A stretch of DNA of 64,000 nt, from positions 1,054,001 to 1,118,000 of the forward strand of contig OZ287071.1 of assembly GCA_965645245.1 (NCBI GenBank), written 5' to 3'. Shown here piece after piece: positions 1,035 to 44,200 of this stretch (the first letter of the stretch is position 1; every line of letters starts with the position of its first letter). The position numbers were made by a program, and so were the translations under genes. The DNA comes from Massalongia carnosa (taxonomy: Eukaryota). The notes under the pieces are model-generated. The model had not been told where the DNA came from, ran no database searches, and saw nothing but the letters and a program-made list of their open reading frames with translations.

Positions 1035-4000
1035 CTATTTAGAGGGCATCACGAAAATCGGCACGTCACTTAAATCAACCCCATATCCACGGCTCACACC
1101 TAAGCTCTTCCTGCTGGCACCAGTCTTCATGTTCCTCGTTCCGGCGCTCCCCCCAAGTCCGAGTCCGGGCTCGTATCCGTACGAAAGTCCACCTGCATAG
1201 CGATCGGTAAGGTGTTCCAAGGCTACTGTTGTTGCGCCGGCATGTTTTCTTGGCGTGCTGAAAGAATGGGAAGAAGTTGGTGGGCTGGTCGAGGATGATG
1301 AGTTTTGCGGTTGTGATAACGGCTGAATGGGTGGTGTTGCATTTTGCGGCGATCCAGCCGATCCCCGAATGTTGGCAGAGCTAGGATTGAAGTAGGGTGT
1401 GTACCCGCTAGGTTCCCAGTCCAGATAAGGTAAGCGGGATGGAAAGGGCGTTCCAGAAGCGCCTACAGTCTGAGATCTCAAAAGAAGCGCATCGCCTGCG
1501 GACTTTCGCCGTTGGTTCCATGCTCGTCGCAAAGATTCCCAATCCCTCAAGGGATTAGCGGCGCGCTCTTGCTCCTCTAGAACTGCAACTCTTGTTGATA
1601 CATCAGGTTTCGGACTTCCAGCCAGTTTCTTGATCTGAAGCGGTGGTGGTAGAGCGCTCGATTTTACCGAGTTCGACGACAAGATCTTAGTTTCCCGTTG
1701 TACAACTTCTTGGTTTGTGGGCATGGCTAGCACAGGCGGTGCATCCGCAAACATGCTTTGAGGTCGATTGGGCTTTCCAGGAAACCCAAAACTATTGTAA
1801 AAAATAGCTTGGACCGGCTCGGATGATTTAGACAAACTTTGGCCCTTTTTGTCGATTTGATCCTGTGTAGGTAAGGCTGGAACAGGTGGTACGTCAACGA
1901 ACATACTATGAGGTCGCATCGGTTTGCCAGAAGCTCCACCACGGTCATCAAAGTTCATGGTAGATTGCGTAAATAACCTCGAAAAGCTTTTACTCTTATG
2001 CATACTACGTGCCCTGGCGAATCTGGAAGCTACCTCTTCGTCCATCCCGATCAAAACTCTTGGTTGGGAGGTGAAGTAACTTGCTTGACGCGGATTTGAG
2101 TCATTACTGCATTTGACAGTCCAAGGGCTGACTGTCACAGGTCTTGCGATGTCGTAAGGGCCTACACCTAGCGACCTCGTAACAGTACCAAAGTCGGCAA
2201 TTGCTGTGTGATTCTGGCTCTGGCTTATCCGGCGTTGTGCTTTCGACGGGCTAGTTGAACTTTTATGCAAGCTTCGTTTGGATTTCATGCTCTTAATGGA
2301 TCTTGATGAGGGCCAATCTAAATTCGCTCTTATAACAGAGTTTCCCCTTTCTATGGTACTAGCTGGCGACGGGAATCGGATTGGCACACATATTGGTTCA
2401 TCGATTGACAGGCTATCGCTCGACCTAACATGCTGTAAGCTTGGGAATGTATGTTCCAGTACTGGAAATTCTCGGAGTCTTTCTATATGTTTGGACACAA
2501 TCTCCAACGGTACCGGGGGTATGTTGGATTGACTAATATTCCGAGTACATTGAACGAAGATAAATTCTGCTGGTATTGGCTGCGATGAGGGCCTTGCTTT
2601 TCGAAGCTTGCGAGATTCAACTATATTTTTGGGCAATAATTTCGACGTGGGTTGAGATTTATCGACAGAATCTTTGGTATCTTTCTTATCAACAAGATCA
2701 ACAAGAGGAGCGGAATTTGCCACTTCGGCATTTGGAATAGCCAATGTCAGTGGATTTACTGTACGTATTCTGCTAGGAGCCTCCAGAGCGCGATTGGCAG
2801 CTCCATGTGGTGTACAAGTTGGCATCGTCCGTGGACCTGAAATATATCTAGAAGCTCTCCGACGTGATATATACGATTGCTCAATTTTCAAACCATTGCT
2901 ACCCCTAGAGGCCGAGTTACCAAGACTCTTTAGCGACTCACTCGAGCTATATCCGCTGTCTGCTTTTAAATTTGGTTTGGCAGAAATAGACTCTGGACTG
3001 TTGGCATTGTGATCCATGCTCATTGAAACCGTAGAGAATGAGGCAGGGCGATAAGAGAATTCTGCCTCCGTGGCTGCGTTAGCGGTGAGTTTTTGAAGGG
3101 CAGCCTCCCTTGTTCCCTCATTGGCGTGCCTAGTTTCCACATCGTTTATGAATGATCTCCAAAGACTCATTGCCGGTCGCTGCGATCGTGAGATGACAAT
3201 AGCGTCATCATCAAAGGACTCCTCGCGAGCCGTATCGATCGATGACATGTACCCGAAATTTGGGCTTTTAGAACTGGAAGAATCACCAAAGGAATATGGG
3301 CTACTCGGAAGGTCTTGCAGATATTCTTGCGCAATGCACAACGCCTGATCTGGTACCTGTGAAAAGGCCCTCTGGCATATGGGAGTTTTCTTATACGATG
3401 ATAGGCCTGGAATATTTTGGGGCATGCGTTCCACTACATGACAATCTTCGGCCCCTTGTTCATATTTTAGAGGACTACCGCTCCTATGTTTCGTTTTCCT
3501 TGAGGCATCGGGCTCTCCTCTTGAAATCTTGAAGGTTTTAATTAATTGTTCAGATTGAACCGCCGAGTCTTCCTTTTGCTGTGGTTCTTCATATCCACGA
3601 TGATTATTCACAGACGAGTGGGATTCTCCCAAATTCTCACCTCCCTCGAGAGCCGTAAAGAAATCATCGCAACCCAACGATTCTTGCGAAGGAGGATGCA
3701 TTCGTAAGGGATTAATGCTTTCGGGCGCTGGCGAGGGGGTTCCATTTGTGACTCGAAGTGTACCTGGCCTAAGCCCTCCGAGATGGGAGTAACCCAGATT
3801 GGAAGGAGTCGATCTACCACCGCTACCTTCTCCAATTTCTAAAGCAGCTAGTCGGGTTAAAGGGGAGGATTGGGGTAAATTAGGATTGAAATAATAATCG
3901 CGATCGGCCTGTGATTGTAACCTTTCCGGTGGAGGCGGCTTTCGTAAAATATCGTTAGGCGTTCGTGTTGCAATACCGGGAGTGTAGAGAGAACGTCGGC

Positions 4001-4604
4001 GTATTGGGGACATCATGGAGTCGACATGCATATCTTCAGTGGCTGATGGAGCGACATGGTTCTGGGCTGCAATGCTATCTGCATATGCCTTCTCTTTAAT
4101 CTCCAAAGCGATTCGCGCAGATTCTTCGTGATCTACTACTTGGGGCTGATTGAATAACAATAACTTTACGCTGGACGAGGTCGAGAGCTGAGTTGACGAT
4201 GCAGTTGCGCTCGGTATTTGTGAAATCGAGGATCCTGTTCCTGCTCTGGAAAGGCGGTTTTTGACGCCTCGAGCGATATCTGCAAGTCCCCTCTGCCCAT
4301 CATCTTCCTCATCGGATGCATCTGTATTGGATTTGTCTTGGCTAGCCCCGGATAGGTACGCACGAATCTTTGAGCGTGTACGCTGCCGACTTCTGCGTCT
4401 TGAAGGTACAACAATGGTTTGATCCCCATTCATGTATGTGGCGGAAGGTGAAATTGGAGAGGGGGGCTCGCGATGTTGCTCCACAAGTCTCAATGGACTT
4501 CCAGACGAGGCGTTGGTGCGAGGTTTAGAAAGTCTCTGAGAACGCGAGTCATCCACTGGTTGGGAAATACTGGCCATATCCAAAGAGATGTTCGAGCCTA
4601 GCAA
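1035..4604 (-). CDS. Large Ser/Pro-rich low-complexity fungal hypothetical protein (~1180 aa)
   Basis: 3.5-kb uninterrupted ORF with conserved-looking islands (SPIRRRSLYTPGIATR; GGLSYGYEPGLGLGGSAGTR...GYGVDLSDVPIF). The true start is uncertain (ATG of MASISQP or an upstream exon). Confidence 0.8.
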   Translation of the reverse strand: MLGSNISLDMASISQPVDDSRSQRLSKPRTNASSGSPLRLVEQHREPPSPISPSATYMNGDQTIVVPSRRRSRQRTRSKIRAYLSGASQDKSNTDASDEEDDGQRGLADIARGVKNRLSRAGTGSSISQIPSATASSTQLSTSSSVKLLLFNQPQVVDHEESARIALEIKEKAYADSIAAQNHVAPSATEDMHVDSMMSPIRRRSLYTPGIATRTPNDILRKPPPPERLQSQADRDYYFNPNLPQSSPLTRLAALEIGEGSGGRSTPSNLGYSHLGGLRPGTLRVTNGTPSPAPESINPLRMHPPSQESLGCDDFFTALEGGENLGESHSSVNNHRGYEEPQQKEDSAVQSEQLIKTFKISRGEPDASRKTKHRSGSPLKYEQGAEDCHVVERMPQNIPGLSSYKKTPICQRAFSQVPDQALCIAQEYLQDLPSSPYSFGDSSSSKSPNFGYMSSIDTAREESFDDDAIVISRSQRPAMSLWRSFINDVETRHANEGTREAALQKLTANAATEAEFSYRPASFSTVSMSMDHNANSPESISAKPNLKADSGYSSSESLKSLGNSASRGSNGLKIEQSYISRRRASRYISGPRTMPTCTPHGAANRALEAPSRIRTVNPLTLAIPNAEVANSAPLVDLVDKKDTKDSVDKSQPTSKLLPKNIVESRKLRKARPSSQPIPAEFIFVQCTRNISQSNIPPVPLEIVSKHIERLREFPVLEHTFPSLQHVRSSDSLSIDEPICVPIRFPSPASTIERGNSVIRANLDWPSSRSIKSMKSKRSLHKSSTSPSKAQRRISQSQNHTAIADFGTVTRSLGVGPYDIARPVTVSPWTVKCSNDSNPRQASYFTSQPRVLIGMDEEVASRFARARSMHKSKSFSRLFTQSTMNFDDRGGASGKPMRPHSMFVDVPPVPALPTQDQIDKKGQSLSKSSEPVQAIFYNSFGFPGKPNRPQSMFADAPPVLAMPTNQEVVQRETKILSSNSVKSSALPPPLQIKKLAGSPKPDVSTRVAVLEEQERAANPLRDWESLRRAWNQRRKSAGDALLLRSQTVGASGTPFPSRLPYLDWEPSGYTPYFNPSSANIRGSAGSPQNATPPIQPLSQPQNSSSSTSPPTSSHSFSTPRKHAGATTVALEHLTDRYAGGLSYGYEPGLGLGGSAGTRNMKTGASRKSLGVSRGYGVDLSDVPIFVMPSK

Positions 4605-5639
4605 GCAGCATAGATGGAATTGATGTTACTAGTTTGCCATAGCAGATTGATAGAATTGACCGGTATCATTAGAAGTGGGTAGAAACAATCGATATAGAAA
4701 GAATAAGTAAACAATATCAGCGACAACTTGATGCCATCTAAACTTCAACCATCATAATTTAAAGAAATCTGGCGAGTCAAAATGGATGAGACATATGTAC
4801 CGAGTAGGTAGATCTGAGACGAGGTCTCAAAAGAGGTCGGGAATGCGGAGATTCAACGGCCGCCTTGGCCGATATCAGTTGAGGTGGTTGGAGAAGCAGG
4901 AGAAGGATTTAGCATCGTTACTTGGACAACACCATTTAAGAGGAAAATGTGGCTGGGCTAAGTATCTTACGGAGCATCATCCGCTTAATCTATGGTTGGC
5001 CCAGAAATCCGACTCTGAGAGAGCGCTGCTTTGTTTAGCGGGGTTACAGCACTCTCTGTGGCTGAGCGCCGATCGTTCAACGATCTTTACCTCGTTAAGG
5101 AGCTGTCGCGTCTTGCAAGGATTATGTCTTGATATCATCGGGTTTGCTCCCGCGTCTCAGCCACTCCTATGAGAACTAGGGTAAAAGAAGATCCTGTAGC
5201 GCATGGCCTCGTCAGACTTCAGGAACCAAGCTGTGGATACAGAGTAGAGAAAGTGTGGACTACGAGTTTCAGGGAGTAGTAATCAAAGTAGAACACTGAA
5301 GCCGGACCTGATGAATTAGACTAGTCTGCTTAACTTGACGATTGGAGAAAAGAGCCGTACACCAGCGCCCCGATTGGATAATCGAGAGTTCGGCGGCGAT
5401 GAGCTTGGACAAGGTATTATGTATGTGCTGCACTCTAAATGTTGCATTTGCACGAACTCATAATTGGAGTGGATCTACAGAGTAAATAAAACACATCCTT
5501 AGGAATACATACTCCCTACTACTTAAAAATAAGCAGATACCTACTCTGTACCTGGAAACGTGCATAACGCAACCTTGGTGGTTCCAACCACCTCGATACA
5601 TGTACAAACCACCGTTGAAACCTGCATAATCAAAGCACT

Positions 5640-6650
5640 ATGGATTCAGCACAACAAGATCAAATCCCAGTCATTGTAGATCTTAGGTCTGATCGCCTTT
5701 CCCAAATCTCCGTACAAACCAAAGACTCTGCTTTCATGTCACAGACTGCTTTCAGTGAAGCGTGTCGATACTGGATGGGCAGAAGCCGAGAAGCTGGTTG
5801 CGTTGGGATGCATTGGAGGCTTTGCGGAGAGGTACGACTCGCGCACCTTGTACTTTCCGTTTCCCAGTGAACCTTTAATTGCACCCTTGTACAAGTCAAC
5901 ATCAAATAGGAGCTCGGCTTAAGAGCTTTATCGACTTTTTGTTAGATGTCTTACCTGTATCGATAAATTCTACCTGTCCTATCATTGACCGGATACTCAC
6001 ATCTTTTCGTAGTTGGAGAACCAATACTTAACCGTCTCTCGCTCCTTACAAACACAGTTTTCAGAAAGTTGCAGCTGGTCTTTGGACGATGAAGTGCAAA
6101 CAAACGCTATCACAAATGATAATGAGGATGATGAGGTGAGTTTCGTAGCGACCATGCGATCATAAAATAATTTCTTCTGATGGTAAGAGGTTACAATCCA
6201 TCACCACAGCGGCACGGGCCCTTCAGTAGAATACAGCATCCTCTTCTCCCATACCTACTGCGTCCCGGTTCTCTACTTTTCTCTGAAAGAACTTCCCTCC
6301 AGTAGCGTATGGGGCATCGATGCAATACACGAGCTTCTTGTCCCTGAGCACATGAGAACTGGATTACAGCAGGTTGGCGTGATGGGAGGAATTAGTATGA
6401 GCGTATAAGAACCCTTAACCAGCGTCAGCTATTCGTAAACACTGACGTCAAAAGATAGAATCATCCCGCCACTGACGTGCCGGCATATTTCATACATCCA
6501 TGTAATACTTCCGAAGCCATGCAAAATATAATTGACGGCCGGAATGTGTCACCGCCGGAGTACCTGCAAATTTGGATAGGATTGATAGGGGCCTGCATAG
6601 GGTTGTATCTGCCGAGTCAGCTTATTGCAAGTAAACTGCAAGAAAAATGA
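5640..6650 (+). CDS. ATG10: Autophagy E2-like conjugating enzyme Atg10 (4 exons: 5640-5831, 6013-6135, 6190-6402, 6459-6650; ~239 aa)
   Basis: Spliced translation gives AFMSQTAFSEACRYW...EDDE...VEYSILFSHTYCVPVLYF...GGISMS|NHPATDVPAYFIHPCNTSEAM...EYLQIWIGLIGACIGL, the Atg10/Atg3 active-site motifs with catalytic HPC. Intron 2 acceptor is atypical (see findings). Confidence 0.85.
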
Positions 6651-6811
6651 GTAAAGTTTGTTTTTCTTTGTTACAGTAAACACTGACGATCCTCATAATA
6701 TCCATAATTTTTGAACCTACATTTGCCGGTAAGGTATCATGAATCCAGGTATTATGATCCTCAACGCGCCTCGAGATCATACTCATTCAGTCTTGTGAAT
6801 ATAATCCACAA

Positions 6812-7537
6812 TCAAGAAGAATCTTCATCTGATGAAGCATCCATAGGAGCATCGCTGTCACCCTCTTCCATCGGCACGCCTTCCTCATCACTTTCATCTT
6901 CTCTTCTTCTCTTCACACCTTGTGGCCCTCCGGTATCAACATCTATTCCGTTCGCTCCGGAAGCGGGGACTTTGGTTACGGCAACTGAAACAGCAGCCGG
7001 AGTAGGTGCCACCATCGAAGAAGGTGGAGCGTTGAAGATAGACTGCTGCAGCTCTGTGGTCGCAACTTCGTTACTTGCGGTGATAGGCATACGATAGGTG
7101 CCATCCAATTTTGCGATGGTATTTGATTTCCCCTTTGCATATTGGATTTTCTATCCCTTCCTTAGTAATTCTGAATTATCTAATCGTCCAAGACGGCTTG
7201 CTCACCATCTCTTTCCCGAAGAAGTCAAATCCTTGTAATGCTCGCATTGCTTGTGTGCTTGCTTGGATATCGCGGAACACAACATGTGCCTGGCCACGCA
7301 TCTTCGAATTCTTTACCGCAACGACATCGAGCACAGGGCCATATGTAGAAAACAGGGTGTATAGTGAGAGTTTTAAATCGGGCTTTTGTAGCTTTTCTGG
7401 TAAATTTGTACAGTAAAGCCTATCGAGATCATGAGCAGCGCCTTATTAAAAATCTGGTAATTTCCCTACGTCTGATTTGGAGCTCCAGATAGCTTCTGCG
7501 GCGGTCCATTGAGAGTTGGCATACCCGTTGAAGCCAT
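6812..7537 (-). CDS. MSL1: U2 snRNP B''/U1A-family RRM protein (exons 7537-7470, 7419-7206, 7150-6812)
   Basis: PNQT|LYCTNLPEKLQKPDLKLSLYTLFSTYGPVLDVVAVKNSKMRGQAHVVFRDIQASTQAMRALQGFDFFGKEM|KIQYAKGKS is the characteristic U1A/U2B'' RRM. Canonical introns. Confidence 0.85.
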
Positions 7538-7597
7538 AATGATTCAAATATTGAGATTGCAAAGCAGTGCCTTATGAACCTAAATTATACTTCCGTA

Positions 7598-9765
7598 TCC
7601 CTCTCGCTGTCATTCTAGCACCCCCCTCCCAAGCTAATCTATATTGGACTAGCTTCCGCACCGATGAGTCATCAGAACATTAGTTTTCTCTAGAGTGTTT
7701 GCGCGTTTGTTTACTTTTCAAAGAATACTATTCGGTCATTCAATCAAAATAAATCACATAAATTACTATTCTTCTAGCTTCGGAATTGATATTATAAGTA
7801 TGACGCTCAATGAAGAAGAAATCCCGAGTGTATCAGACAAATCTCCCATTTCAGCGAAGCAACATAAAATAAATCGCAAAAGAAGTGTTCGGGATATTTT
7901 AATCGACCTTCCCCCTATTTCCTCAAAATATACCCCCATTCGGGTTGAAAACAGGCCTTTTGTTCCGCTCGTTGAAAACGATTCTCGAAATCCTTTGGGA
8001 TTATTTCGTTTATTTATAACAAGGCAGCATTGTCGTATCATCGCAAATCATACCAATATCAAGGCAAATAACTACATGGAAAAGGAGAAGGAGAACAATC
8101 ATCGGGTTTGGACTGACACTACTGACTCGGAAATTGAGGTTTTTTTGGGCATATTAATTCTTATGGGACTCGATCATCTACCTGCTACAGAGGATTATTG
8201 GAATCAACGTCCTGACAAACCAGTTATCATGCCTATTCTGTCCGCGATGTCGCTTGGTCGATTTCAACAAATCAAACGATTTTTGAAAATCAATAATGGA
8301 CAGACTGAGCCTATCGGACTTGGTCAAGGACCTGATTGGTGGAAGAAACTGGAACCGTTGGCTACTGATTTCCGAAAGACTTCATTGAAACATTGCAGAC
8401 CAGGAAGTATGATATCTATAGATGAACAGCTGGTGTTATTCAAGGGCCGTTCTCGACATACCTTGCAGATTACTACAAAAAGTGCCCATAAAGGATTTAA
8501 AATCTACAGTCTCTGTCAGGATAATTATCTGTTGTCATTTATGTTTGCCTCGAAGAGTAGCAGAATAAGTGAATTGAAAACAGTCAGACAATTGGGATTT
8601 TTGCCAAAAGATAAACTAACTCCTAGTGCTTTGCTAGTGATTCAGTTATGTAAAGAACTTCCATCCTCACTGAATTATCATCTTTTCTGTGATAATTTCT
8701 TTACTAGTACGAAATTATTCAAGGCACTTCGATCAATCGGAATAGCTGCCAGTGGAACTGCTAAAAAGGGCTCGGGCTTTCCAGAAGAATTGTTGGCCAT
8801 ACGGGACGTCACTTCAAAAGGAAAAGACTGGGGTCTTCAGGCCCATATGGTGGTCGACGATAAGGTGCTTTGTATGGGCTGGGTGGATAATAATGGTGTG
8901 CAGTACATGACCACCGGTCATTCTCCTCAGGACTTGTACGAAATGCACTATATAAATCCGCACAAGAGATATGGAATTCCCGAGACCTCTCTTCAACCTA
9001 TTGTATCGTATTTCCCATCAACTCTGGCTCACTCCATTCCCTTGCTCAATCAAGAGGTTCAACGGCCCTTAGGATTACCGATACCAGCCCCAATCAAAGA
9101 ATATAATCTTCATATGGGGGGATCGGATGGAAACGCTCAGCAACGAGCGATTTACTCATACAATCGTCGAACGGATCGTTACTGGTGGCCTTTGTTCATT
9201 TTTATTTTAGATGCAGCCGGATTGAATGCCTATAAACTTTACTCGCTGAACTCTTTCGATTCCGAGGAGATAAAATTTACTCGTTCTGAATTTCTTCGTC
9301 GGATTGCTCTTGAACTGATATCAAATCAAGCGGGCATCAGGCCCGGCTCATCAAAGATAAGCATCAATACCACGATTGATGCTTTAGTACCATCTCCCAT
9401 TCATCATTACGTTCGTCTTGAAGGCAGAAAAAGATGTGTGCAATGTAACGCCGAGAAAAAACGACCTTCAAAGCGGAAGGGAGAGCCACTGGCTGAAATA
9501 AGTGTCGATGGGCGTAAAAGAAGGCGAAGGGGTGCTCAGACTATATGGGCTTGTGGAGGATGTAATCCAATCAGGCCCTGCTGTAAGAAAGCCAGCTGTT
9601 GGGAAGCTATTCATATGATAGGGGACGAGTAAATAGGTATCTGATACTCCGTACAACTTCTTGTGAATAGGAATAACATTGATTGGTCAAAAGTTTAAGG
9701 TTTAGCGCTTTCTAACCAACAATGGTTTAGCTTGGGGGGGGGTGCTAGAATGACAGCGAGAGGGA
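7598..9765 (+). mobile_element. piggyBac-superfamily DNA transposon 1 (2168 bp, apparently intact)
   Basis: ~40-bp TIRs TCCCTCTCGCTGTCATTCTAGCACCCCCC(T)CCCAAGCTAA at 7598-7637 and 9727-9765, differing by one extra T. Flanked by TA at 7596-7597 and 9766-9767. Encloses a transposase ORF. Confidence 0.95.
7800..9632 (+). CDS. piggyBac (DDE_Tnp_1_7/PGBD-like) transposase, 610 aa, intronless
   Basis: Motifs SIDEQL, FCDNFF, YNLHMGGSDGNAQQR, RYWWPLF and a C-terminal Cys-rich domain (CVQC...WACGGC...CCKKASCWEAIH). First ATG at 7800. Confidence 0.93.
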   Translation: MTLNEEEIPSVSDKSPISAKQHKINRKRSVRDILIDLPPISSKYTPIRVENRPFVPLVENDSRNPLGLFRLFITRQHCRIIANHTNIKANNYMEKEKENNHRVWTDTTDSEIEVFLGILILMGLDHLPATEDYWNQRPDKPVIMPILSAMSLGRFQQIKRFLKINNGQTEPIGLGQGPDWWKKLEPLATDFRKTSLKHCRPGSMISIDEQLVLFKGRSRHTLQITTKSAHKGFKIYSLCQDNYLLSFMFASKSSRISELKTVRQLGFLPKDKLTPSALLVIQLCKELPSSLNYHLFCDNFFTSTKLFKALRSIGIAASGTAKKGSGFPEELLAIRDVTSKGKDWGLQAHMVVDDKVLCMGWVDNNGVQYMTTGHSPQDLYEMHYINPHKRYGIPETSLQPIVSYFPSTLAHSIPLLNQEVQRPLGLPIPAPIKEYNLHMGGSDGNAQQRAIYSYNRRTDRYWWPLFIFILDAAGLNAYKLYSLNSFDSEEIKFTRSEFLRRIALELISNQAGIRPGSSKISINTTIDALVPSPIHHYVRLEGRKRCVQCNAEKKRPSKRKGEPLAEISVDGRKRRRRGAQTIWACGGCNPIRPCCKKASCWEAIHMIGDE

Positions 9766-9943
9766 TAGGATTTCCCGTCGAGTCACCAATCAGAACCTCT
9801 GTTCTCTGTTAGTCAGCTAAGTAGCTCTATCAACGCGTAGACCTGCTACTTGAGCTCTTCAAATCAGAGCAGAGGCTGTAAACATCTCGAAGAAAGAATC
9901 TACTCACTACCTCATCCTTTATTTCACTCACGAAGTCTACATT

Positions 9944-10752
9944 ATGGTAGGAAAGCTCCAACCACATTTTAGATTTAATAATTATTAACCACATCTCTAG
10001 GGATCACCCTTCAGCATAAGTACGCTCTGCGGATTCTAACAGAATGCCCACCATAGCTAATCTCAAACGGCTTTAGATGGTGGCGCTTGCGTAGCAATGG
10101 TCGGCAAAGACTGTGTAGCTATTGCCTGCGACCTGCGCCTTGGCCTGCAATCCCTAACCGTATCTAACAACTTCCCTAAAATCTTCTCCTACGGTGACGT
10201 CTACCTTGGCCTTACGGGCCTCGCTACCGACGTATCCACCGTGTCCGATCTTTTTCGCTACAAAGTCAATATGTACCGCCTGCGCGAGGAGCGCCCAATA
10301 TCTCCGCAGACAATGGCGAATCTTGTATCAACTAGCCTGTACGAAAAGCGCTTTGGGCCATATTTCATAAGCCCCGTGGTTGCGGGCATCAACCATACTA
10401 CGGGAAAACCATTCATTTGCGGATTCGATAGCATCGGTTGTATTGACTTCGCAAAGGATTTCATCGTGTCCGGGACAGCGAGCGATCAGCTGTTTGGGAC
10501 CTGCGAGGGGTTATGGGAACCGGATCTGGTATGTGAAAGATTGCTGTCATGCAGTTCTTTGAAAATAGCTACGAAGTTTAGTTGGCTGACCTTTGACGGC
10601 GACAACAGGAACCGGAGGATCTGTTTGAGACGATATCGCAAGCGCTGCTGAATGCTGTGGACAGAGATGCTCTGTCAGGCTGGGGTGCACACGTATACAT
10701 CATTGAAAAAGATAAAGTTACAAAGAGATTATTGAAAGGGAGGCAAGATTAG
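9944..10752 (+). CDS. PUP3: 20S proteasome subunit beta-3 (exons 9944-9946, 10001-10019, 10077-10528, 10609-10752)
   Basis: [30 protein letters not shown]...[10 protein letters not shown]...[30 protein letters not shown]. Confidence 0.96.
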
Positions 10753-11329
10753 CGGAATTACGGGCATCTCCACAGGCGCATGGCGATCTGTGTAATAAAG
10801 TTTACCTGCGTATCATAGACTCCACCCAAGCGTTCAAGTTCTCGAAGCGTGTGATTACGGTTTATAATTGTGTTTGCCTGAGCTAACTATATTAGATGTC
10901 TTTTGTGACCTACAGTGACGGTCTTACAGACCTTTTATTGCTTCCTATGCAAAAACTCCCAAATACCTTCGTCCAGTCTACCGAGGACGCTAGCGATAAA
11001 GTCTATGGCAGTACATCTTTCAGAATTTCTTTAAGGAGACGATAGGCAATAACAACCTCTCTACGCTGTCAGTCCTTAAATTTCCCAACTAGCAAACGCA
11101 GGAATTCAAGTTTTTTACTATATTGCGAGGCCCGCTGCTCTGCCCATTTTAGATTCTTATCACTCTGCATTTACAGTCCCGTTATTTTGTCTACTTAGTT
11201 GAAACCAATCCATATTTCATTACTTATATAAAAGCAACCGATTCCCCTTTGTTCATCTTCCTCAACGCACAATAGAGAAAGCCCTATATACAGGACGTGA
11301 CATCATTAAATACCCACATACCCATCACA

Positions 11330-12063
11330 TCACACATCCCGAAGCAACCCCTTCAACTCCTCCGCCTGCGCCGGCGTAACCAGATCCCGGAGCTGCTCCT
11401 CCAACAAAAAAGCATGGTCCTCGTATTCGAAGCCCGGTACAACCGTCTACAATTCCACACATCCCACGCAAAATCCATCAACAAACAATCATAAACATCC
11501 GCAAAGGAAAACAGGAGTGGACAGGAACACACAAAACTTACCTCGCTGATCAAAAGGCCCTCCTCTCCCTCTCCCTCCTCGTCCAGCAGAAAACTAGCTT
11601 TAAACTTACCCCCGTCCACGATCCACTGCACCTTCTCTCCCGCCAGTACGTTCTTTCCTACCACAAACGTCTCTATCCTTACCTTTTCGATTCTCTCCTT
11701 CTCCACCACTTCGCCGGCGTGAATGATCACATACCGTCCTCGGCCCCAGTGCAGCGTGTGCACCGTGCGCCCGCGATTTCGATGGAAGGCCCCTTGTGGT
11801 TTCGCAGGTGTGAGGAAGTATAGGATACTCGTGGAGGCGGCGCGGGTGGCGGTTGGTTGGGTGGTGGCAGGTTTGGTGGGTAAGGAGGTAAGAAAAGGGT
11901 TGGGGATACGGAGGGGATCACGGTCGGTTTCGACAAAGTAGCCGCCTTCAATGTGGGAGTTTAGGTGCAGAGCTGTGATGAGTTTTTGAGTGGTGGAGGA
12001 TTCGGGAGGATGTGGAGAGGAAGCATGCAGGTAGTCCGGAATGAGGAGGGGGGGGGCTGGCAT
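11330..12063 (-). CDS. DUF985/Cupin_5 cupin, YML079W (Cff1)-like (exons 12063-11542, 11446-11330)
   Basis: LNSHIEGGYFVETDR, STSILYFLT, FHRN..TVHTLHWGRGRY, QWIVDGGKFKAS, LISE|TVVPGFEYEDH motifs. Confidence 0.85.
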
Positions 12064-34089: not shown

Positions 34090-35343
34090 TGAACTCTGTT
34101 ACTTTTCCTTCCCCTTGGTCTTCAAACCTATATGCAAAGATGGGAAACCTCTGCTGCTTATCACTCTGAACCCGATAACACGGCATCCTGAGATACCATA
34201 TGCATCTTTGCGGCCTAAGAAGTGCTGCCATGTTTCCAAATTAAAAGAAAGCCTTCCACTTTCACAACGCCACCAAGCTACGCCGATCAACTGCACAGCA
34301 CGCCCTCAACGATGATCTAGAAAAAATCCCTTCCTAAGGCTGGAGCATCATCCTGCCAGATTCCGAAATCATATACCAAGCCTCAACTTAGCAGCCATGT
34401 CCGCGACTCTTTCCTCTTGGCTAGAAAGCCGCTGCCCAGATAAATTTCGAGAAGTTGAGCTGCTCGAGAATGAACGTGTCTCCGCCGGGTAGTTGCTCCC
34501 CAGCCAGCTCCGTAGGGTTTATGTCTATCTCAATCCCTATCCCCATCTCCCTTCCAAACCTAACTCCTTCACAGAAGGTCCCATGACGAAATACATACCC
34601 ATCTACTACTTAGGTGTCTAGTCTCCTTTTGAGCGTAAAAGCTCGCTCCATCCCCCCCCTCCCCCCCAATCTCTCTCTTCGATTAAGAAGCCTATTCAGC
34701 TGGTCTTTTCGCAAAACGAACGCAACTTTCCGGAACTATATCCGACGATGGGGAAATAGCTTGGTTGCAGCCGAGCGAGGGATCATGGGCATGGAAAAGA
34801 TATCCGTAAATACAATTTCCTTCAAGGGAATGAATCGAAACCCCCCCGGTAGCGTAAATCTGAGAAAGAAAAAAACCACTAAAGTAATAATTCCATTCAT
34901 ACGCACATATCCAAATCAAAACACCAAGGATAGCCCCCCTCTTCTAACCCAGCTAAGCCCCTATCTCTACAGAGTGATACCATCTAAGTTAATTACATAC
35001 TCAATACTCAGCACAAACTAAAAACAACAAATCGCATATCCGAGTCGCAATCCCCAGTGCCGGCCCCTCTGTCGTTTCCTCGAGCTTATCCTGTGGTTTT
35101 CCCAAAATGACCACCCTTTTATTCGTCCGTTTCCTATGGTTCGGGGGAACGAGAATCCGAATGAAGGAACCAAATGGATCGCTATCCCTTCGTCTGGCAA
35201 TTTGGCAGCCACCTTAAATAGGCTTAGTGAGATACCGTAGGGCTGAGTCGCGAACTTCAAAACATTCTCCCCTTTTTTTGTAAATAAGAAGGTAAACATC
35301 AGTTGAAAATCATTAAAACATCTACAATTTCTTTAGAATAATC

Positions 35344-37186
35344 ATGAGAGGCATTGAGATAGAAGTTCCTGACCAATCAGACGCTTTGCCCCCCTCAATT
35401 CTGAAAGAACAGGCCAAAAAGAATAAACCCAGCGTACAAAGCATAATTGACTCCATGCCCCCTCCGTCATCCAATTATTGTCCAATTTCGATCCCATTTC
35501 GAAAACCACAGCCGGACGAGACGTTGCGCTTGATAAATCAGACTCCTTTCAGTTTATTCTGCCTCTTCTTTAGCTTTGAAATGCTTGAAATCATAGCTAA
35601 AAACACCAATCTTAAAGCGAAAAAGAAGTATGCCCTAAACGACATCAAGAGACGTCAATGGCATGACACCTCTTCTTCTGAAGTAGGAGCTTTTCTGGGG
35701 ATTCTGTTATATATGGGGTATACACTGATGCCACGTCTTACTGACTATTGGAACACGTCTCCTAAATTTGCCATACATGACATGGTGATTCAAGCCATGA
35801 GTCTTCGAAGATGGGAGCAACTCAAGCGATTTTTGAAGATATCCAACCCCGACGAAGATGAGATCATTGATACTCGAGGCCCTGATTGGTGGAAAAAGCT
35901 GGAACCATTGGCCACAGACTTTCGAAAAGCATCAAAGAAATACTGGATTCCTGGAAGTCATGTGTCAGTTGACGAGCAATTGATTTTATTCAGGGGTAGG
36001 AGCTGCCATACTATGCAAATAGCCACCAAGGCGGCTGGTGTAGGCTTCAAAATCTATAGTTTATGTCAGGAAAATTATCTTTTTGACTTCTTATTTACCT
36101 CCAAGGTGAGTAGAAAAGGCCTCAATTTGCATCGTACTAATTGCAAGACAGGTGTCCAAAATTAGTGAGTTAAAAACGCCTGGACAATTGAAATTTCCGA
36201 CAACCAAATGGGATTTGTCTCCTTCCTCCCTAGTCGTCATTCAACTGGCTCGAAGTTTACCGTCTGATGAAGGCTTGAAATACGTCATCTTTCTGGACAA
36301 CTTCTTCACAAATACGAAGCTATTCAAAGCTCTGAAAACCATTGGAATTGGTGCCTGTGGGACGGCTAAATCAGGATGCGGTTTTCCTGTTGATCTTCTA
36401 CGTCTGAGGGTTGCAGCCACCAAGAATAAGGACTGGGGAAAGAAGGCATTGATGACGGTACCTGCAAATAAAAGTAAAAAATCAAACATTGATGACGGGG
36501 ACATTCTGTGTATGGCATGGGTGGATTTAAACACCGTGCAATTCATGACCACCGTTCATACAATTGAGGATTTGAAGACTTCTTTCTACAAGAATTCCCG
36601 TCGACGTCATGGAATTCCTGCAAATTCCAGAGTCATCGTTGATGATGAAGAAGAAAAGCTTCCATTTCCCATGCCCATCGTGGAATATAACCAGCACATG
36701 GGCGGGTCAGATGGGAATGCTCAGCAAAGAGCATATTATTCACCTCAAAGATCTGATCGTCGCTACTGGTGGTCAATTTTCATCTTTCTTCTGGATGCAG
36801 CCGTTCTAAATGCCTTCAAATTGTGGAGAATTCTGTATCCGAATTCAACACTCAGCCATTTGGACTTTCAAAAAGAAATAGTAAATGCCCTACTATCCAA
36901 TCAAGCCGGTACCCTACGGAAACGTCCGACAGATGTCATAGTTACTACTAATCAAGACGTTAATAAAGACGTCGAGTCAACTTGCAAATGGGAGCATTTG
37001 AATAAGAAGGACTATTGTTTGGCCTGCAAAAGGCAAGTGCCAAGACTCAAACGACGCCGACCACTTGCGGAAATTGATGAAAATTGCACCAAAAGACGAC
37101 GTGCAAGTCAGACCAGATGGCAATGTAAGAGCTGTGGACCATGTTGCAAAAAGAAGGCATGTTGGGAAATTTTACATAGATCATGA
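35344..37186 (+). CDS. piggyBac transposase, 598 aa, with one 46-bp intron (36106-36151)
   Basis: SVDEQL, FLDNFF, YNQHMGGSDGNAQQR and a C-terminal Cys-rich domain. Intron GTGAGT...TACTAAT...CAG joins the two ORF-track halves in frame. Confidence 0.92.
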
Positions 37187-37256
37187 GGGGTGATTGAGGT
37201 GTTGTACCCATTATCGTTGAAAAGGGAAAATCTGATTGGCCAGATTAAAGTTATTA

Positions 37257-39075
37257 ACGTAATTTACCCTCATTCGGGTCAGCCCCCCATTCGGGTCACC
37301 CCATTAAAATCTAGCGACCGAAAAAATTTCTATCCTGTTTATCTACCACCACCATATATTTATCTATTAATTGTAGATAAAATGTCCATTAATATGCCTA
37401 CACTTGACTCTGCTACTAAATTACAGTTGGCTATCGAAGAATTAGCCAAAAATCCGGGCATTTCGCAGCGGGAAATAGCGCGCCTTTACGGAGTTCCTCA
37501 GTCGACTTTACAGGCCCGGCTCAAAGGCAGGCGGGCCGCAAAACACTATCATCAAGCCGCCCAAAGGCTATCCGTCCACGAAGAACAGGCTCTGATTGAT
37601 TGGATAGAGCGGATGACCTCATGGGGTTGGCCGCCTCGTATCCAACATTTGGAAGGCATGGCCAGAAGTCTCCTGAACGCCAAAGGGGACAAAAATCCGT
37701 TGGGTCGTCATTGGTATCAAAAGTTCCTGAAAAGGCATCCCGATTTCAAAATCAAATACAATAGAAACCTCGATCAATCCAGAAAGGACGCTGGTAGTCC
37801 CGAAATTTTGCGTGATTGGTTCGAATTGTACACGACCACCTGGTCAAATATGGGATTTCAGATGAAGATACTTACAACATGGATGAAAAAGGCTTTGCTA
37901 TGGGCATCGCAGACAGTTCGAAGGTCATAATCAAAGGAACAACAACACCATTCAATGTGCATCCGGGAAATAGGGACTGGGTTTCTCTTATTGAGTGCAT
38001 ATCATCCCGCGGAACAGTTCTTCCGGCTTATATCATTTTCCAAGGTGCCCAAGTTCAACCTGCATGGTATGATGCTATGGAGACGAAGGCAGATACCGTT
38101 CGGGTCAGTCCCAATGGTTGGACGGATGCGGAGATAGGCCTTCATTGGTTGCAAACGGTGTTCAATAAGCATACAAAACCTGAACGAGGCATGTATAGGA
38201 TGCTAATTGTAGATGGCCATGAGAGTCACGTCTCCATTCCTTTTATGGAGTTTTGTGCCCAAGAGAAAACCATACCCCTTTGTTTGCCACCACATTCAAC
38301 TCATTTATTGCAGCACCTGGATGTCGGTGTTTTTGGCCCTTTATCTAAGGCCTATAAACAACTCGTTTCCAGCCAATCACGTTACGGGGCTGTGACTATT
38401 TCTAAGCTAGATTTTTTGCGCCTTATTCAGGTGGCTAGGAAACAGGCCATTACTACTACTAACATCATGAGTGCATGGCGGGGGGCAGGCCTCATCCCAT
38501 TTAATCCAGGGCATGTTCTAGGCAAGTTGCCTAGGCCTATCACACCTCCTACCTATCCAAACACCGTCACCGATGCCCCCCAAACGGAGCAATGAATCCA
38601 GGAAGTCAGTGATGCCCTTATATCCTGTATAACTCCATCTCTTCGCGCGCATGTTGAGTTGCTTAAAACAACTGCTTTGAATGCCGTCGCTGATAGGGTT
38701 ATTCTAAGACACACCAATCAAGAACTGATTGATAAAAAGGCTCAGGGACGTCAAAAAGCATCCAGAAAGGGGGGTGTTAAAGCGAGGGTGCTGACTGTGG
38801 GTGAAGGGCAGGCGATTGCGGAGGAAAAACAGAGGAAGGAAGAAGCATTGGCCAAATAAAAGGAACGGTACCATGCTTTAAATGGTAAAGTAAAGTTCGC
38901 AAAGGCCGTATGGAAGGAAATGCAGATGGATTGTGGTGTTTTTAGTTAGTTTTGGGGATGGTGGACGCAATGTAATATTTTTCTTTGGTGTAGGGCGAAG
39001 ATTTTTTTTGGTGGGGTGACCCGATTGGGTGGCTGACCCGAATGGGGGGCTGACCCGAATGAGGGTAAATTACGT
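37257..39075 (+). mobile_element. pogo/Fot1-family DNA transposon nested in the 3' noncoding region of piggyBac 2
   Basis: 42-bp TIRs ACGTAATTTACCCTCATTCGGGTCAGCCCCCCATTCGGGTCA. TA TSD at 37255-37256 and 39076-39077. Confidence 0.95.
37382..38949 (+). pseudogene. Disrupted Fot1/pogo transposase (HTH_psq, CENP-B HTH, DDE_1)
   Basis: YNMDEKGF, LIVDGHESH, LQHLDVGVF. Frameshift at about 37830 and in-frame stops at 38593 (TGA) and 38857 (TAA). Confidence 0.9.
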
Positions 39076-39744
39076 TAGTCATTACCCGGAGACGGCGCGT
39101 GTAAAATTGAATATTACCTAAATGGCTGCGTGGCTGCCAAATTGCCAGACGAAGGGATACAGTCACCCGGCTTCTGTTCGTAGATGTGGATGTTCGATGA
39201 GACGTAAGATAACGGAATCCATATATGCTACTCGTCGATAAAAATGTTAGGTATGTATCCGCGAGGTGCTGACTACGTTGATTGTCAGCCCCGCCAGCAG
39301 CGCATACTTTGGAATAGTTTCAGCTTCCCCCCAGCTCGGAAGACGTGATGGGTGGGTCAAGTTCGATAGCCAGAGCTGGGGTACTTGCTGGGTCCCTCTT
39401 ACCACCTAGAGGCTGAGGTCTTTTAAGGGAGAGGGTTTAGAGGGGTAGAGCAAATAAATAAACGAATGATAAGAGAGAGAAAATGAACGTATGAAAATTG
39501 TAGGTATGTATGCATGCAGACTCTACAATCCTAAGTTTTTTTTCTTCTTTTTTTGTAGAAAAATGAAACGAACTAAACTGATTAAAATAAACAAGAAGAA
39601 CGGAGCGAGCCCCCGCGCGAGCGACAATCAATCAAAGAAAGCGCGGAATAAAGTGATGATGATGTAGAGATAAAAACACCGATAAAGACAAAGAGACAGC
39701 AAGATATATATAGATAGATGGATATACATATCATCAAGAAACGA

Positions 39745-41235
39745 TCGGAAAATGACTACACTCGAACAATCAAACGCGCTCTCTCGAGAGCGCACAGCGA
39801 AAGGAGGAAAGGTTTGCACGTAAAGATCAAGGAGTATCTTGATCGAGTGGGCACCGTTGGTGACCCGGAGGCGTTGCAGTTGCTGAGAAACTCAGCGGAA
39901 ATTTTGCAAGCGCAAAATCTAGTCGATGACAAAGTTGCAGAAACTCCCAACAATATAGGTGACACATTACAGGCAATCCAACAATCATTGACAGAGCGCA
40001 ATGAGACCACTCCTCGCAGCTATGCCGCTGCTGCCACAGGGCAAGGCCGAGATGAGCCCGCACCCCCATAGAACCAAAACGTCAAGCCTCAACAGGCCCG
40101 CAAAGACAAAGCACCCACACCAAGAGAAGCGCGACGTGCCCGGGAAATCACCGTTCACATCACGGAGGATGCGGACAAGGAAAAAATGAAGCTAATGCCA
40201 ACCAAGGAGTTGGTAGAAACACTACAAAATGGAGCTGAAGGAATAAGGGGAGTGTCGCGTTTGTTAAACGGCGACATCAGGATTCACGCAGAGTCATTGG
40301 AAGCAAAGAAGACCCTGCAGAAGAAGACCGATTGGACCCGCATGGTGGCCGCCTCAGCTGCGGTGCACACCCGCACCTTCACCGTAAGAGCGAATGGAAT
40401 CAGGGTGGAAAACATCAAAGTGGCCAATCAATCAACAGCCATCACCTACCTTCAGGCCGCTAACGCACGCCTGCACCCTTACCTGAAGATCGTCAAAGTA
40501 GCCTGGTCAATCAAGGCCATCAGAGAGAAAAAAGCGTACTCGACGCTTCATATAGAGGTCGCCACCGCCGAGATGGCTAACCGGCTCATCACCGACGGCC
40601 TAATGGAAAGCTACGAAATAAAGGACTGCGAGCGCTTCACACGTGGTTGCACCATGACTCGATGCTTCAACTGCCAAAAATACGGACACATCGGTAGATC
40701 ATGCCGCAATCCCGCCGCCTGTGGTCACTACGCCGGTGGACATCAAAGCAAACAATGCAATCTGGAGACAACGGGGCAATACCGCCGTTGCGCCGTATGT
40801 GGAGAGAAGGGACACGAAGCATGGTCCACAGCATGCAAAGTCTGAAAAGCTGAAAAGCGAAAAACTGAAATAGCAATGCAAAACCGCGCCCCCCTCTATG
40901 CAATCGAATCACAACCGCCCTCATTTCAATTTCAACTTCAACGAGAGTCGACACCCACAGTCACACAAACGGACGAAATTCCGTCAACGTGGAAGATAGT
41001 AAACGGCAAGAAAAGAAAAATACACAACGCTACGCCCTCATCCGGCACACTCCCGGGCCCTCATCGGGGAGACGACGCACCCACCTGGGCTAATATAGGC
41101 ATCATGAATCCTGAAAATATGGTAAAGGCCTTAGCAAAACCAGTGCTGGGTAGGCCTCGTGTAGATTCCGTAGCATTAACGGCAGGAACTCAGGTCACAT
41201 CGAATACAGCGGCCGAAACGATGGAAATCCTATGA
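39745..41235 (+). pseudogene. LINE ORF1 (gag-like, three CCHC-type zinc knuckles)
   Basis: CFNCQKYGHIGRSC, CGHYAGGHQSKQC, CAVCGEKGHEAWSTAC. One frame broken by TAG at 40069 and TGA at 40843. The stop overlaps the ORF2 start (ATGA, 41232-41235). Confidence 0.85.
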
Positions 41236-44200
41236 GGGACACAAAATCCCTCTCTATATTACAGTATAATGTCAGAAATGACACCAGAGTGTGCTTTTAT
41301 GTCAACGACCTAATAGACACTGACAGCTGGGAGGTGGAATTCACCTCGGCCGACATGTGCACTTTGAAAATAAAGACCTACACCGAAGGCGTTATGGAAA
41401 CAATTCACGTCCATAATGTGTATAACCCCTCTCCCGCCTCCTATTCATCCACTGACAGTCCCACGACCTTACCGGCGGCTCGGAGCATGCTTACCGTCGA
41501 TGCGCATCACACACTACTTGGAGATTTCAACCTGCATCATCCCTTTTGGAATGGTCCCTCAAGACCCACACAACACGCTGCTGCTGATCAATTACTAGAA
41601 ATAATCGATGATCATAATCTTTCGTTGACACTGCCGAAAGGCACCGTAACATGGGAAGCAAGAAACACGTCTAGCACGATAGATTTGGGTTTCATGTCAG
41701 AATATCTAGTCGAAAGACTCGAACACTGCATGTCCAGACCAGAATTGAATCAATCGTCCGATCACGTACCGATATCAGCCCGCATCCTACTCGGAAGCGA
41801 GCCGCAACCGAAAATCAAACGCAGAGCATGGAAACTTCTAAACCTGGAAAAATTAAGGGAGGCTGAACGACACGCCCCTATACCAGAGTCTCCCCGCCGA
41901 GATTGATGCGTACACGGAATCGATTCAAAAATTTCTACAAAATGTCATCAACGAAGCAGTTCCATGGGCAAAATCTAGCGAATATGCTAAGCCATTCTGG
42001 ACAGAAGAATGCAGCATTGCCACCAAAGCCACACGGAAACTACGCCGCATTATGGTCCAGCACGTTAGACCTAACGGACTGGTCTAACTATATGAAATCC
42101 AATGATAAAAAACAGAAAATCATTCAAAAGGCAAAGAGAACAAACTTTCGTCAAGAAATCAGTAAGGCCACCGAAACGCCTCAGGGACTATGGCGGCTAG
42201 CGAAATGGGCCAAAGACAAAAGTCGTCTATCTAGAGAAGTATCCAAAATGCCGATGCTAAAATTCAATGACCAAGTAGCAGACACGTTTGACCAAAAAGC
42301 CGAAATGCTGAAAGGTGTCTTCTTTCCCGCACCACCACCGGCCGACCTAAGCGACATAGAAGGATCCTTCTATCCTACATCGCCGCACTGCCTAATAATC
42401 ATCACCAAGTCAGAAGTATCGACGGCCCTGAGTCGACTCAAGTCCGATAAGGCACCGGGCCCAGACGGCATATCTAACAGAATACTCAAAGCATGCAGCG
42501 AAAAACTTGTCGAACTACTAACACCTCTGTTTCAGGCGTGCGTCACCACTCGTACCACCCGCGGGCCTTCAAAATGGCAAACACAATAGCGCTGAAAAAA
42601 ACAGGCAAAGGAGACTATATCACGCCGAAAGCCTACCGACCAATTGCACTGCTCAACACGCTCAGTAAAATTATGGAATCCATCATTGGATCGAAAATAA
42701 CCTATCTAGCGGAAACACACCGGCTCCTACCCGACACACAGATGGGAGCAAGGAAGGGCAGATCCACAGAGTCAGCACTGGAACTGCTAACTGAACAGGT
42801 TCACACGATTTGGGGACAGGGAAAACACAAAGTAGCCACACTGCTAAGCATGGACGTCGCCGGCGCGTTCGATACGGTATCACATCAACGACTAACGCAC
42901 AACCTACGGAAAAAAAAAAATCAAAATGGATCACCGACTGGTTAAACAGCTTTCTAAGCGATCGAAGCACCACTTTAGCAATAAATCGAAAAGTCACCGG
43001 GCGGTTTGGGGTAAGAACGGGTATCCCGCAGGGCTCTCCCCTGTCATCCATTCTTTACCTATTTTACAATGCAGATCTATTGGAAATATGTGATCGACCA
43101 GGCAAAAACACAAGTGCCATAGGATTCGTAGACGACGCAAAAATTTTGGCATATGGAAAAAGCACCGAGGAAAACTGCAAAAACTCTAGAGGCAATACAC
43201 AGACAATGTGAGACGTGGGCTTCCCGGCATGGGTCCGTATTCGCTCCGACGAAGTACGAACTCATACACTTGTCCAGAAATCCCAAAAGATTCAACATGA
43301 CTGCATCCATCAATATTGCTAGCACCGAAATTGAACCCAAAAACGGACATCAGAGTATTGGGCCTACAAATCGACACTAAATTGAAATGGGGACCGCATG
43401 TTCGCAAAACGCAAGAGAAAATGGTCAAACAATCCATGGCATTAACAAAAATTTCCACATCAACCTGGGGTGCCACCTTCGCCAAGGCAAGGCAAGTTTA
43501 CAGTGCCGTGGTGCGTCCGGCCATGACATATAGGTCAACCGTATGGCACATGCCCAAAGAAGTCAAAAAGTCAAACGTCAACGAGCAAGCGCTCCGTCAT
43601 GCAAAACAATTGCCTTCGCACCATAGCCGGTGCCTTTTAAGCAACTCCCATCTCAGTACTAGAAGCAGAGACATTCATAGCGCCCATAGACACGCATCTC
43701 GACATGCTACAACAAGCACAGGCAAGGCACCGGCTCCGAGCCGGAGGCCAATTGAAGATCATCTCCTCCGCATACAACAAAATAGCTGACAAACTTCGAG
43801 GCAAGGCAGGTCGCAAACGACTTCAAAAGCCCACCCCGGGAGAGCTGAAACACATCTGGGCCAAAAGCCTACTGATCGACTCAAAAATAGTTCAACCATC
43901 AAAGGCACACCCACCATGGTTCGAAGTCTACCCGGCGTGGCACCGCGAAGCTACCGTTGCGGCAACGGCCCGACACAAGCAGATGCAAACAATCAAAGCA
44001 CGACAAATGAAGGTCTGGAACGACTCGTGGTGCGCATATCAAAATCGCGTCATCGAACCCTCTATAGCACAATCAGTCCCACTGAGCAAAAAACGGCTGA
44101 AAATACACACGCAGCTAAAAAAGGCAGAAAGCGCTCTAACAACACAAATCCGCACTGGCAAGATCGGGTTAGCTGACTTCCTCTACAAGCGACGGGTGCC

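Follow-up and report, generated by a model that had tools for sequence, protein, structure and literature searches.

Which target did two piggyBac-like transposons use when they entered the same stretch of fungal chromosome, and what did they leave at its edges? The question is raised by 64,000 nucleotides of the lichen-associated fungus Massalongia carnosa (GenBank assembly GCA_965645245.1, contig OZ287071.1, positions 1,054,001 to 1,118,000 of the forward strand; hereafter the window, meaning that whole stretch). Element 1 has the junctions ccg-TA-TCCC...GGGA-TA-gga, and element 2, further along the same strand, has cgc-TA-TCCC...GGGA-TA-cag. Reviews and surveys give TTAA as the universal target of piggyBac, and TTAA with its 4-bp duplication is treated as the hallmark of the superfamily, which structural studies link to how the transposase dimer is built. 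On balance we favor, with some confidence, the interpretation that the two are autonomous cut-and-paste piggyBac elements from a large lineage, found mostly in fungi, whose members insert at TATA, keep the CCC...GGG ends and duplicate 2 bp, AT. Papers are cited below by their PubMed Central numbers.

Both elements are piggyBac superfamily transposons. The transposase of element 1 (P0001) matches the Pfam family PF13843 (DDE_Tnp_1_7) over the whole profile (positions 1-349 of 349; E 9e-53, 180 bits against a cutoff of 22.4), the two exons of the element 2 transposase match it with E values of 2e-32 and 5e-22, and identity between the transposases of elements 1 and 2 is 45-49%. A phmmer search with P0001 found Trichoplusia ni piggyBac (PB; 6x67, E 3e-17) and piggyBat (9c0f), while a search of the ESM Atlas returned only generic arthropod piggyBac clusters. 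In the Pfam scan elements 1 and 2 showed PF13843 only and no Tc1/mariner or pogo-type transposase, the DDE_1 and HTH_Tnp_Tc5 matches belonging to an element nested in element 2. The catalytic residues D208/D298/D443 of P0001 align with D268/D346/D447 of PB and are invariant in an alignment of four full-length members (A2), as are C546, C549, C585, C588, C595, C600 and H605; no match to Pfam zf-Tnp_2 was reported. Three relatives in a nine-sequence alignment (A1), P0013, P0016 and P0028, have Asn for the second catalytic Asp (xNNFF) along with many other changes, and are probably dead copies. Two further positions concern the reading of the target. PB Y439/N440, which contact the flank bases T-3 and A-2 together with a hydrophobic pocket (PMC7351741), correspond to Y435/N436 of P0001, and these are invariant in 9/9 aligned members. 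Opposite PB Y283, the residue stacked against the final A of TTAA (PMC7351741), P0001 has Q223; this position is non-aromatic in the aligned relatives, in a loop whose alignment is not secure.

Because TA is palindromic, a filled site of the form xTA-TCCC...GGGA-TAy fits either an empty site xTAy, with TA duplicated, or an empty site xTATAy, and the choice has to come from empty sites. We found two, one for element 1 of the window itself and one for an element among its most distant relatives in the set. For the former, contigs of four runs (X1, X4, X5 and X6) were compared with window positions 5600-11800, the public runs holding this stretch being one lichen metagenome and three coded organisms. 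A contig of the lichen metagenome (X1; 35,018 bp, depth 26) matches the window at 5600-7591 and at 9765-11800, with 10 and 13 letter differences in the two matches, one 19-bp gap, and only CCGT between them. Its site reads ...ACT-CCGTATAGG..., which is ccgTATAgg, with element 1 absent and both TAs present; the junction string, given again, is ...ACT-CCGTATAGGATT..., also with both TAs. Derivation of this contig from a TATA empty site needs one 1-bp indel, against at least two events from a TA empty site. The allele is compatible with a site that was never occupied or with one from which the element was excised seamlessly. Contigs of X4 and X5 pass from flanking DNA into element 1; the site is filled there and the insertion of element 1 is thus polymorphic, while X6 yielded only low-depth pieces of the element without flank.

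The second empty site was read through a protein. At the metagenome locus L071 an element of the form TCTC...GAGA (2649-5158), with a transposase 27% identical to P0001, interrupts the first exon of a fungal NLR-type gene that encodes an intron-split NPHP3_N/NACHT-type P-loop domain, then a winged-helix domain (WHD) and ankyrin repeats. The host gene (2500-7151) belongs to a very large NLR-like family that shares its short, Asn-rich N-terminal exon (...GNSNQNIGNVLNSYNNTINVG...). With the in-frame right flank as query, 176 matches were obtained, many of them first-exon products of about 136 residues at 75-89% identity, and 12 of the best matches, all uninterrupted paralogues, were aligned with the two flank pieces. 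The left piece (49 residues, ...NVLNS) fills columns 1-49 and the right piece (NNTINVG...) begins at column 51. Column 50, the only one absent from the L071 pieces, is Tyr in 12/12 paralogues. The DNA reads AGC-TA[element]TA-AT-AAC, and removal of exactly TCTC...GAGA gives AGC TAT AAT AAC, or S-Y-N-N. Were only one TA left, the reading frame would change, at the cost of the Tyr, and would meet a stop three codons upstream. This test is free of any excision event.

TATA is thus the target, and what the insertion adds is exactly TCCC...GGGA. A preliminary description of the window, made without database searches, had proposed a 2-bp TA duplication, which fails at both empty sites, as each keeps two TAs. 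The empty site GTAG that it rebuilt for element 1 reads ccgTATAgg in X1, and the GTAG/CTAC reconstruction is contradicted by the L071 reading frame as well. Its other suggestion, a 4-nt NTAN target with an inner base overwritten by the transposon overhang, calls for an empty site of 4 bp that contains a single TA, contrary to both cases.

We looked for further empty sites among the 80 metagenome loci described below and the window, and found none; what matched were repeat occurrences, in other samples, of the same insertions. The DNA search covered flanks of 200-400 bp, from 29 pairs of terminal inverted repeats (TIRs) and five extra elements, and an all-against-all megablast. Indels between related copies proved to be other transposons or internal deletions. 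A repeat of 29-31 nt shared by L074 and L078 resembled an empty site but is uninformative, the similarity stopping before the junction. An open-frame test over the rebuilt sites of 27 elements gave one informative case, L071. Pairs of open reading frames (ORFs) flanking the elements in L010, L056, L040, L077 and element 2 of the window were set aside as probable chance ORFs, having no Pfam match.

The junctions of element 1 and element 2 are repeated across a lineage that is large, mostly fungal, and does not use TTAA. A search of metagenome contigs with the A2 profile gave 230 relatives, and the survey was confined to the best 80 loci, with identities of 27-46%. Complete elements were delimited by a script that sought inverted repeats around each match, and one-sided ends were added by TIR similarity; together with the window these loci provided 64 unique element ends. 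The metagenome loci hold 25 distinct complete elements. In 24 of them the left end is TATC[C/T]C, or in one case TATTCC, and the right end is G[A/G]GATA, whereas L077 (1751-4359), the 25th, reads cATCCCC...GGGGATc. Numbering outward from the junction, position -1 is A in all 64 ends and -2 is T in 61; inside, +1 is T in 63, and C stands at +2, +3 and +4 in 63, 59 and 64 ends, which is CCC once the terminus is placed a single base within TCCC. Agreement of this order at -1 and -2 lies well outside chance. At -3 the ends have C 26 times, G and T 16 times each, and A 6 times, so that A is depleted against its 28% background at these loci and the position is otherwise variable; a shared outer preference, which the preliminary description had read from GTAG and CTAC, is not supported, this depletion of A being all that is seen. 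No end has TTAA adjoining CCC (0/64), and none of the 27 complete elements (25 from the metagenome and two from the window) has x=A together with y=T. The earlier observation that both window elements lack TTAA at CCC/GGG is therefore upheld in the window and extended to the lineage. Likewise, the proposal that they are piggyBac elements of a fungal non-TTAA lineage is borne out, as is its view of them as independent, diverged examples of one rule.

As to the possible size of the lineage, a protein search found 37 relatives at E <=1e-10, one of them the P0002 cluster with 56 members at >=90% identity. A wider profile search of 1.84 billion representatives (50% clustering) gave 1587 profile matches at E <=1e-30 and 24,452 at E <=0.001. 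An exact TIR search and a protein-based search of genome contigs gave no matches.

Several of the surveyed loci have peculiarities of their own. The three ends whose outer flank base is not T are confined to L077 (1751-4359) and L042 (108), where the base is C, G or A and the A adjoining TCCC is retained; the L042 flank reads TTAA before TCCC. Many TIRs (for example L001 2803, L010 213, L024 58 and L027 2817) read TCCCTTAA..., with a TTAA inside the repeat, four bases from its end. In L013 (about 1590-1620) and L017 (4897-4925) TATATA comes directly after a right end, with TCCCACCTTGTCAGC behind it, as though a further element of the lineage began there, abutting the first in a (TA)n tract. 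At L074 (79-2744) 31-bp inverted copies of a repeat enclose a 158-bp miniature inverted-repeat transposable element (MITE; 111-266) together with a full element (620-2712), both from one subfamily, and the same 29 nt stand alone in L078 at 276-304; the arrangement may reflect insertion into the center of another short palindromic element. Finally, the piggyBac copy in L056 carries a GC-rich, hAT-like MITE of about 313 bp (2649-2961) with an 8-bp duplication (CATATGGC), which is absent from the related L059.

How could a transposase of this family produce such sites? In the mechanism that we prefer, the element termini would stay canonical, 5'-CCC...GGG-3', and strand joining would take place between the first T and A of TATA on each strand (T^AT^A), with a 2-bp stagger. 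Gap repair would then duplicate only the central AT, giving x-T-AT-[CCC...GGG]-AT-A-y, which is what one reads as TA-TCCC...GGGA-TA. For the left junction of element 1 this would make 7596 the outer T of TATA and A7597-T7598 the AT copy adjoining CCC; a blunt insertion would make the same letters a flanking TA followed by the first base of the element, T. Since AT is self-complementary, excision that left 2-nt AT overhangs on the flanks could allow them to pair and so restore TATA without a scar, as TTAA does for canonical piggyBac. The cut positions (a 2-bp stagger rather than a blunt cut), the chemistry of excision and present-day activity are inferences. More tentatively, and short of an even chance in our judgment, a whole, mainly fungal branch of piggyBac would have switched its target word from TTAA to TATA and its strand-transfer spacing from 4 bp to 2 bp, while keeping a self-complementary overhang and scar-free excision, and element 1 would encode a live, natural, seamless, TATA-specific transposase.

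Several points weigh against this mechanism. The dimer geometry of piggyBac is said to mandate a 4-bp offset (PMC7351741), so that a 2-bp offset would presuppose a transpososome of altered geometry. The sequence is identical whether 2 bp, AT, are duplicated beside CCC/GGG ends or TCCC...GGGA is inserted bluntly. At the X1 site one T of 'cttccg' is also missing, 4 bp from the junction, which adds one event, and an excision footprint there stays formally conceivable. Flank ORFs elsewhere would fit other spacings (TA in L010, 0/3 in L056, TA or 0/3 in element 2), and, lacking Pfam matches, they are uninformative. The main weakness is that the empty sites are two cases only, neither of them from element 2, and that the cut positions are inferred.

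The identity just mentioned makes blunt insertion the most serious competitor of the 2-bp stagger, and we regard it as rather unlikely, at perhaps less than half the weight of our preferred mechanism. On this account the element ends would be 5'-TCCC...GGGA-3', both strands of TATA would be cut centrally (TA^TA) and nothing would be duplicated, a piggyBac counterpart of Spy, which is a precedent for eukaryotic cut-and-paste elements without a target site duplication (TSD; PMC4122938). The T or A adjoining CCC/GGG is nearly invariant (63/64), as expected of an element-encoded base, and all three deviations in the TA flank fall at the outer base, position -2. We nevertheless prefer CCC/GGG ends, because CCC...GGG termini and an essential 3' G are general to piggyBac: the conserved terminal motif is C[C/A/T][C/A/T]..., with which our placement agrees, other piggyBac elements all end C...G, and the 3' G is required for excision (PMC5381638). 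The stagger is preferred because the flank bases T-3 and A-2 are still T and A and the residues that read them in PB (PMC7351741) are conserved here as the invariant Y435/N436, which fits T and A as flank rather than element. Blunt target cleavage is, moreover, rare among DDE transposases in general.

Other accounts change the target rather than the cut. If the TCCC/GGGA ends were flanked by a Tc1/mariner-like 2-bp TA duplication, the empty site would be xTAy and the TATA of X1 would have to be the footprint of an excision in which neither TA was lost. TA flanks are indeed common to the copies, one Tuber element has been given the same reading (PMC3864998), and the nearby 1-bp change in X1 could be counted as part of a footprint. 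Hairpin-type excision with TA overhangs, however, would restore one TA and not two, the X1 contig would take at least two events against the single extra one needed for TATA, and the pre-insertion gene at L071, fixed by 12/12 paralogues, requires TATA with no excision involved; we consider this account improbable. Less probable still, to the point that we give it hardly any weight, is that these are ordinary TTAA-type piggyBacs with mutated flanks, or elements with a 4-bp ATAT-type duplication. Rare ATAG, TTAT, ATAT and ATAA flanks of single elements have been ascribed to mutation (Bouallegue et al. 2017, PMC5381638), but all four fit NTAT/ATAN and may themselves belong to the TATA lineage. 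The same junction recurs in relatives only 27-46% identical, the single TTAA flank in the survey (L042) stands before TCCC and not before CCC, the outer x and y are free to vary, and a 4-bp duplication of any kind would have added 2 bp more than the net insertion contains. Models with a 4-bp offset of whatever kind, that of the overwriting overhang included, were rejected from the sequences, for they predict GGG-TATA or identical 4-bp flanks (x=A and y=T, an ATAT duplication), and neither was observed.

Element 1 has apparently been active recently, to judge from its sequence and its representation in the runs. The ORF is intact, the TIRs are near-perfect, the related protein cluster has 56 members, and the X1 site is empty. 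In X4, 1535 contigs matched the element 1 region, and in X1, X4 and X5 the summed contig depth over element 1 is 20- to 300-fold that of its flanks, a depth that is not a copy number. The suggestion in the preliminary description that the element may be active is in keeping with these features.

The features of both elements are collected in Table 1. The transposase of element 2 is intact, but the element carries a nested pogo/Fot1-like transposon in its 3' non-coding part. Splicing of the intron gives ...TSK/VSKISELK, where P0001 has ASKSSRISELK. The nested element has 47-bp inverted repeats and its own TA duplication (37255-37256 and 39076-39077), and its transposase is frameshifted, with overlapping ORFs at 37190-37930 and 37816-38595 that match HTH_Tnp_Tc5, HTH_psq and DDE_1. 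Without it, element 2 measures 3973-1821 = 2152 bp, which is the size first assigned to it. The window is otherwise ordinary fungal chromosome, with a Zn2Cys6 factor with Fungal_trans_2, aminotransferases, an Alg9-like transferase, and pogo-like and LINE-like (long interspersed nuclear element) ORFs. The second pogo-like ORF (DDE_1 and HTH_Tnp_Tc5) lies at 61940-63283 and the LINE-like endonuclease ORF (Exo_endo_phos_2) at 41154-41903; several transposon insertions thus lie between housekeeping genes in this region.

Table 1. Coordinates, in window positions, of the two piggyBac-like elements and their parts.
Feature	Position	Strand	Size, basis or remark
Element 1, net inserted DNA TCCC...GGGA	7598..9765	+	2168 bp; X1 contig skips 7592-9764 and has the letters CCGT instead
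Element 1 with canonical CCC...GGG ends	7599-9764	+	alternative end placement
Element 1, left junction, T-AT	7596..7598	+	sequence and X1 empty allele ccgTATAgg
Element 1, right junction, AT-A	9765..9767	+	sequence and X1 empty allele
Element 1, left TIR	7598..7637	+	self-BLAST, about 40 bp at 97.5%
Element 1, right TIR	9727..9765	-	self-BLAST
Element 1, transposase ORF (P0001)	7800..9632	+	610 aa, intact, uninterrupted; DDD triad D208/D298/D443, putative C-terminal Cys-rich region
Element 2, TCCC...GGGA	35185..39157	+	3973 bp; TA flanks at 35183-35184 and 39158-39159
Element 2, TIRs	left 35185..35212, right 39130-39157	left +	28 bp, perfect; self-BLAST
Element 2, transposase exon 1	35344..36105	+	PF13843 profile positions 1-174; 49% identity to P0001
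Element 2, intron	36106..36151	+	46 nt, GT...AG, tactaat branch-like site; read from sequence
Element 2, transposase exon 2, with stop codon	36152..37186	+	PF13843 profile positions 187-349; 45% identity to P0001
Nested pogo/Fot1-like element	37257..39075	+	1819 bp; 3' non-coding part of element 2, downstream of stop codon

Compared with the known systems, the lineage resembles T. ni piggyBac (IFP2) and piggyBat in PF13843, the DDD triad, a putative Cys-rich C-terminus, the CCC...GGG termini, a single ORF and a length of about 2.2-2.5 kb. As in canonical piggyBac, T-A stands at the center of the flanking tetranucleotide, and the residues by which PB reads it (Y439/N440) are retained. It differs in the target (TATA, not TTAA), in the net duplication (2 bp, AT, or none, instead of 4 bp), in its TIRs (28-136 bp against 13 bp), and in Q223 in place of Y283, subject to the uncertain alignment of that loop. 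In Paramecium, the piggyBac-derived enzyme PiggyMac excises internal eliminated sequences (IESs) whose boundaries are defined by TA, with 4-nt staggered cuts centered on TA, and one TA remains. A boundary defined by TA rather than TTAA is common to both systems, whereas the empty site here is TATA, with two TAs. Spy, of the PIF/Harbinger superfamily and without a TSD, is a precedent for an altered target geometry in one lineage of a classical superfamily and would be the analogue of the blunt-insertion account; it differs from the present lineage in superfamily and in target (PMC4122938). Among fungal elements, PBLE of Paracoccidioides brasiliensis has a 50-bp TIR (PMC5381638), unusually long like those of the present lineage.

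Closest by description is Ti_tr1 of Tuber indicum, a pfam13843 element of 2351 bp with 52-bp TIRs and an exon/intron gene, reported as "integrated at TSDs represented by TA nucleotides" and of unclear classification (Belfiori et al. 2013, PMC3864998). It is likewise an ascomycete piggyBac-like element with no TTAA and with TA at both junctions, and it probably belongs to the same lineage, judged by its description. Ti_tr1 is a single element, however, and the excerpts of that paper contain no TATA target, lineage rule or empty-site argument. The preliminary description had itself raised the chance that the family was already catalogued with this TSD: TA TSDs are on record for that one element, while the TATA rule was not found. 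We found neither a TATA target nor a 2-bp AT duplication for piggyBac in the literature searched (Repbase lay outside the search), and a mining study of 2025 required a TTAACC-like motif with <=2 mismatches (PMC13461360). There is thus partial prior notice: the odd TA junction of one Tuber element was already known, and the lineage-wide TATA rule, to judge from the papers searched, was not.

A large natural lineage departs from the TTAA hallmark, and does so regularly. Annotation tools would mis-set the boundaries of such elements or label them Tc1/mariner-like, for which the junction rule given here offers a correction. Element 1, being intact, multi-copy and polymorphic between samples, makes direct testing possible, and transposases that insert with another specificity might be drawn from the lineage. 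The lineage also provides a comparative handle on how the target word and the stagger are set. If the stagger has indeed been reset, the 4-bp offset "mandated by the dimer" would not be fixed within the piggyBac family.

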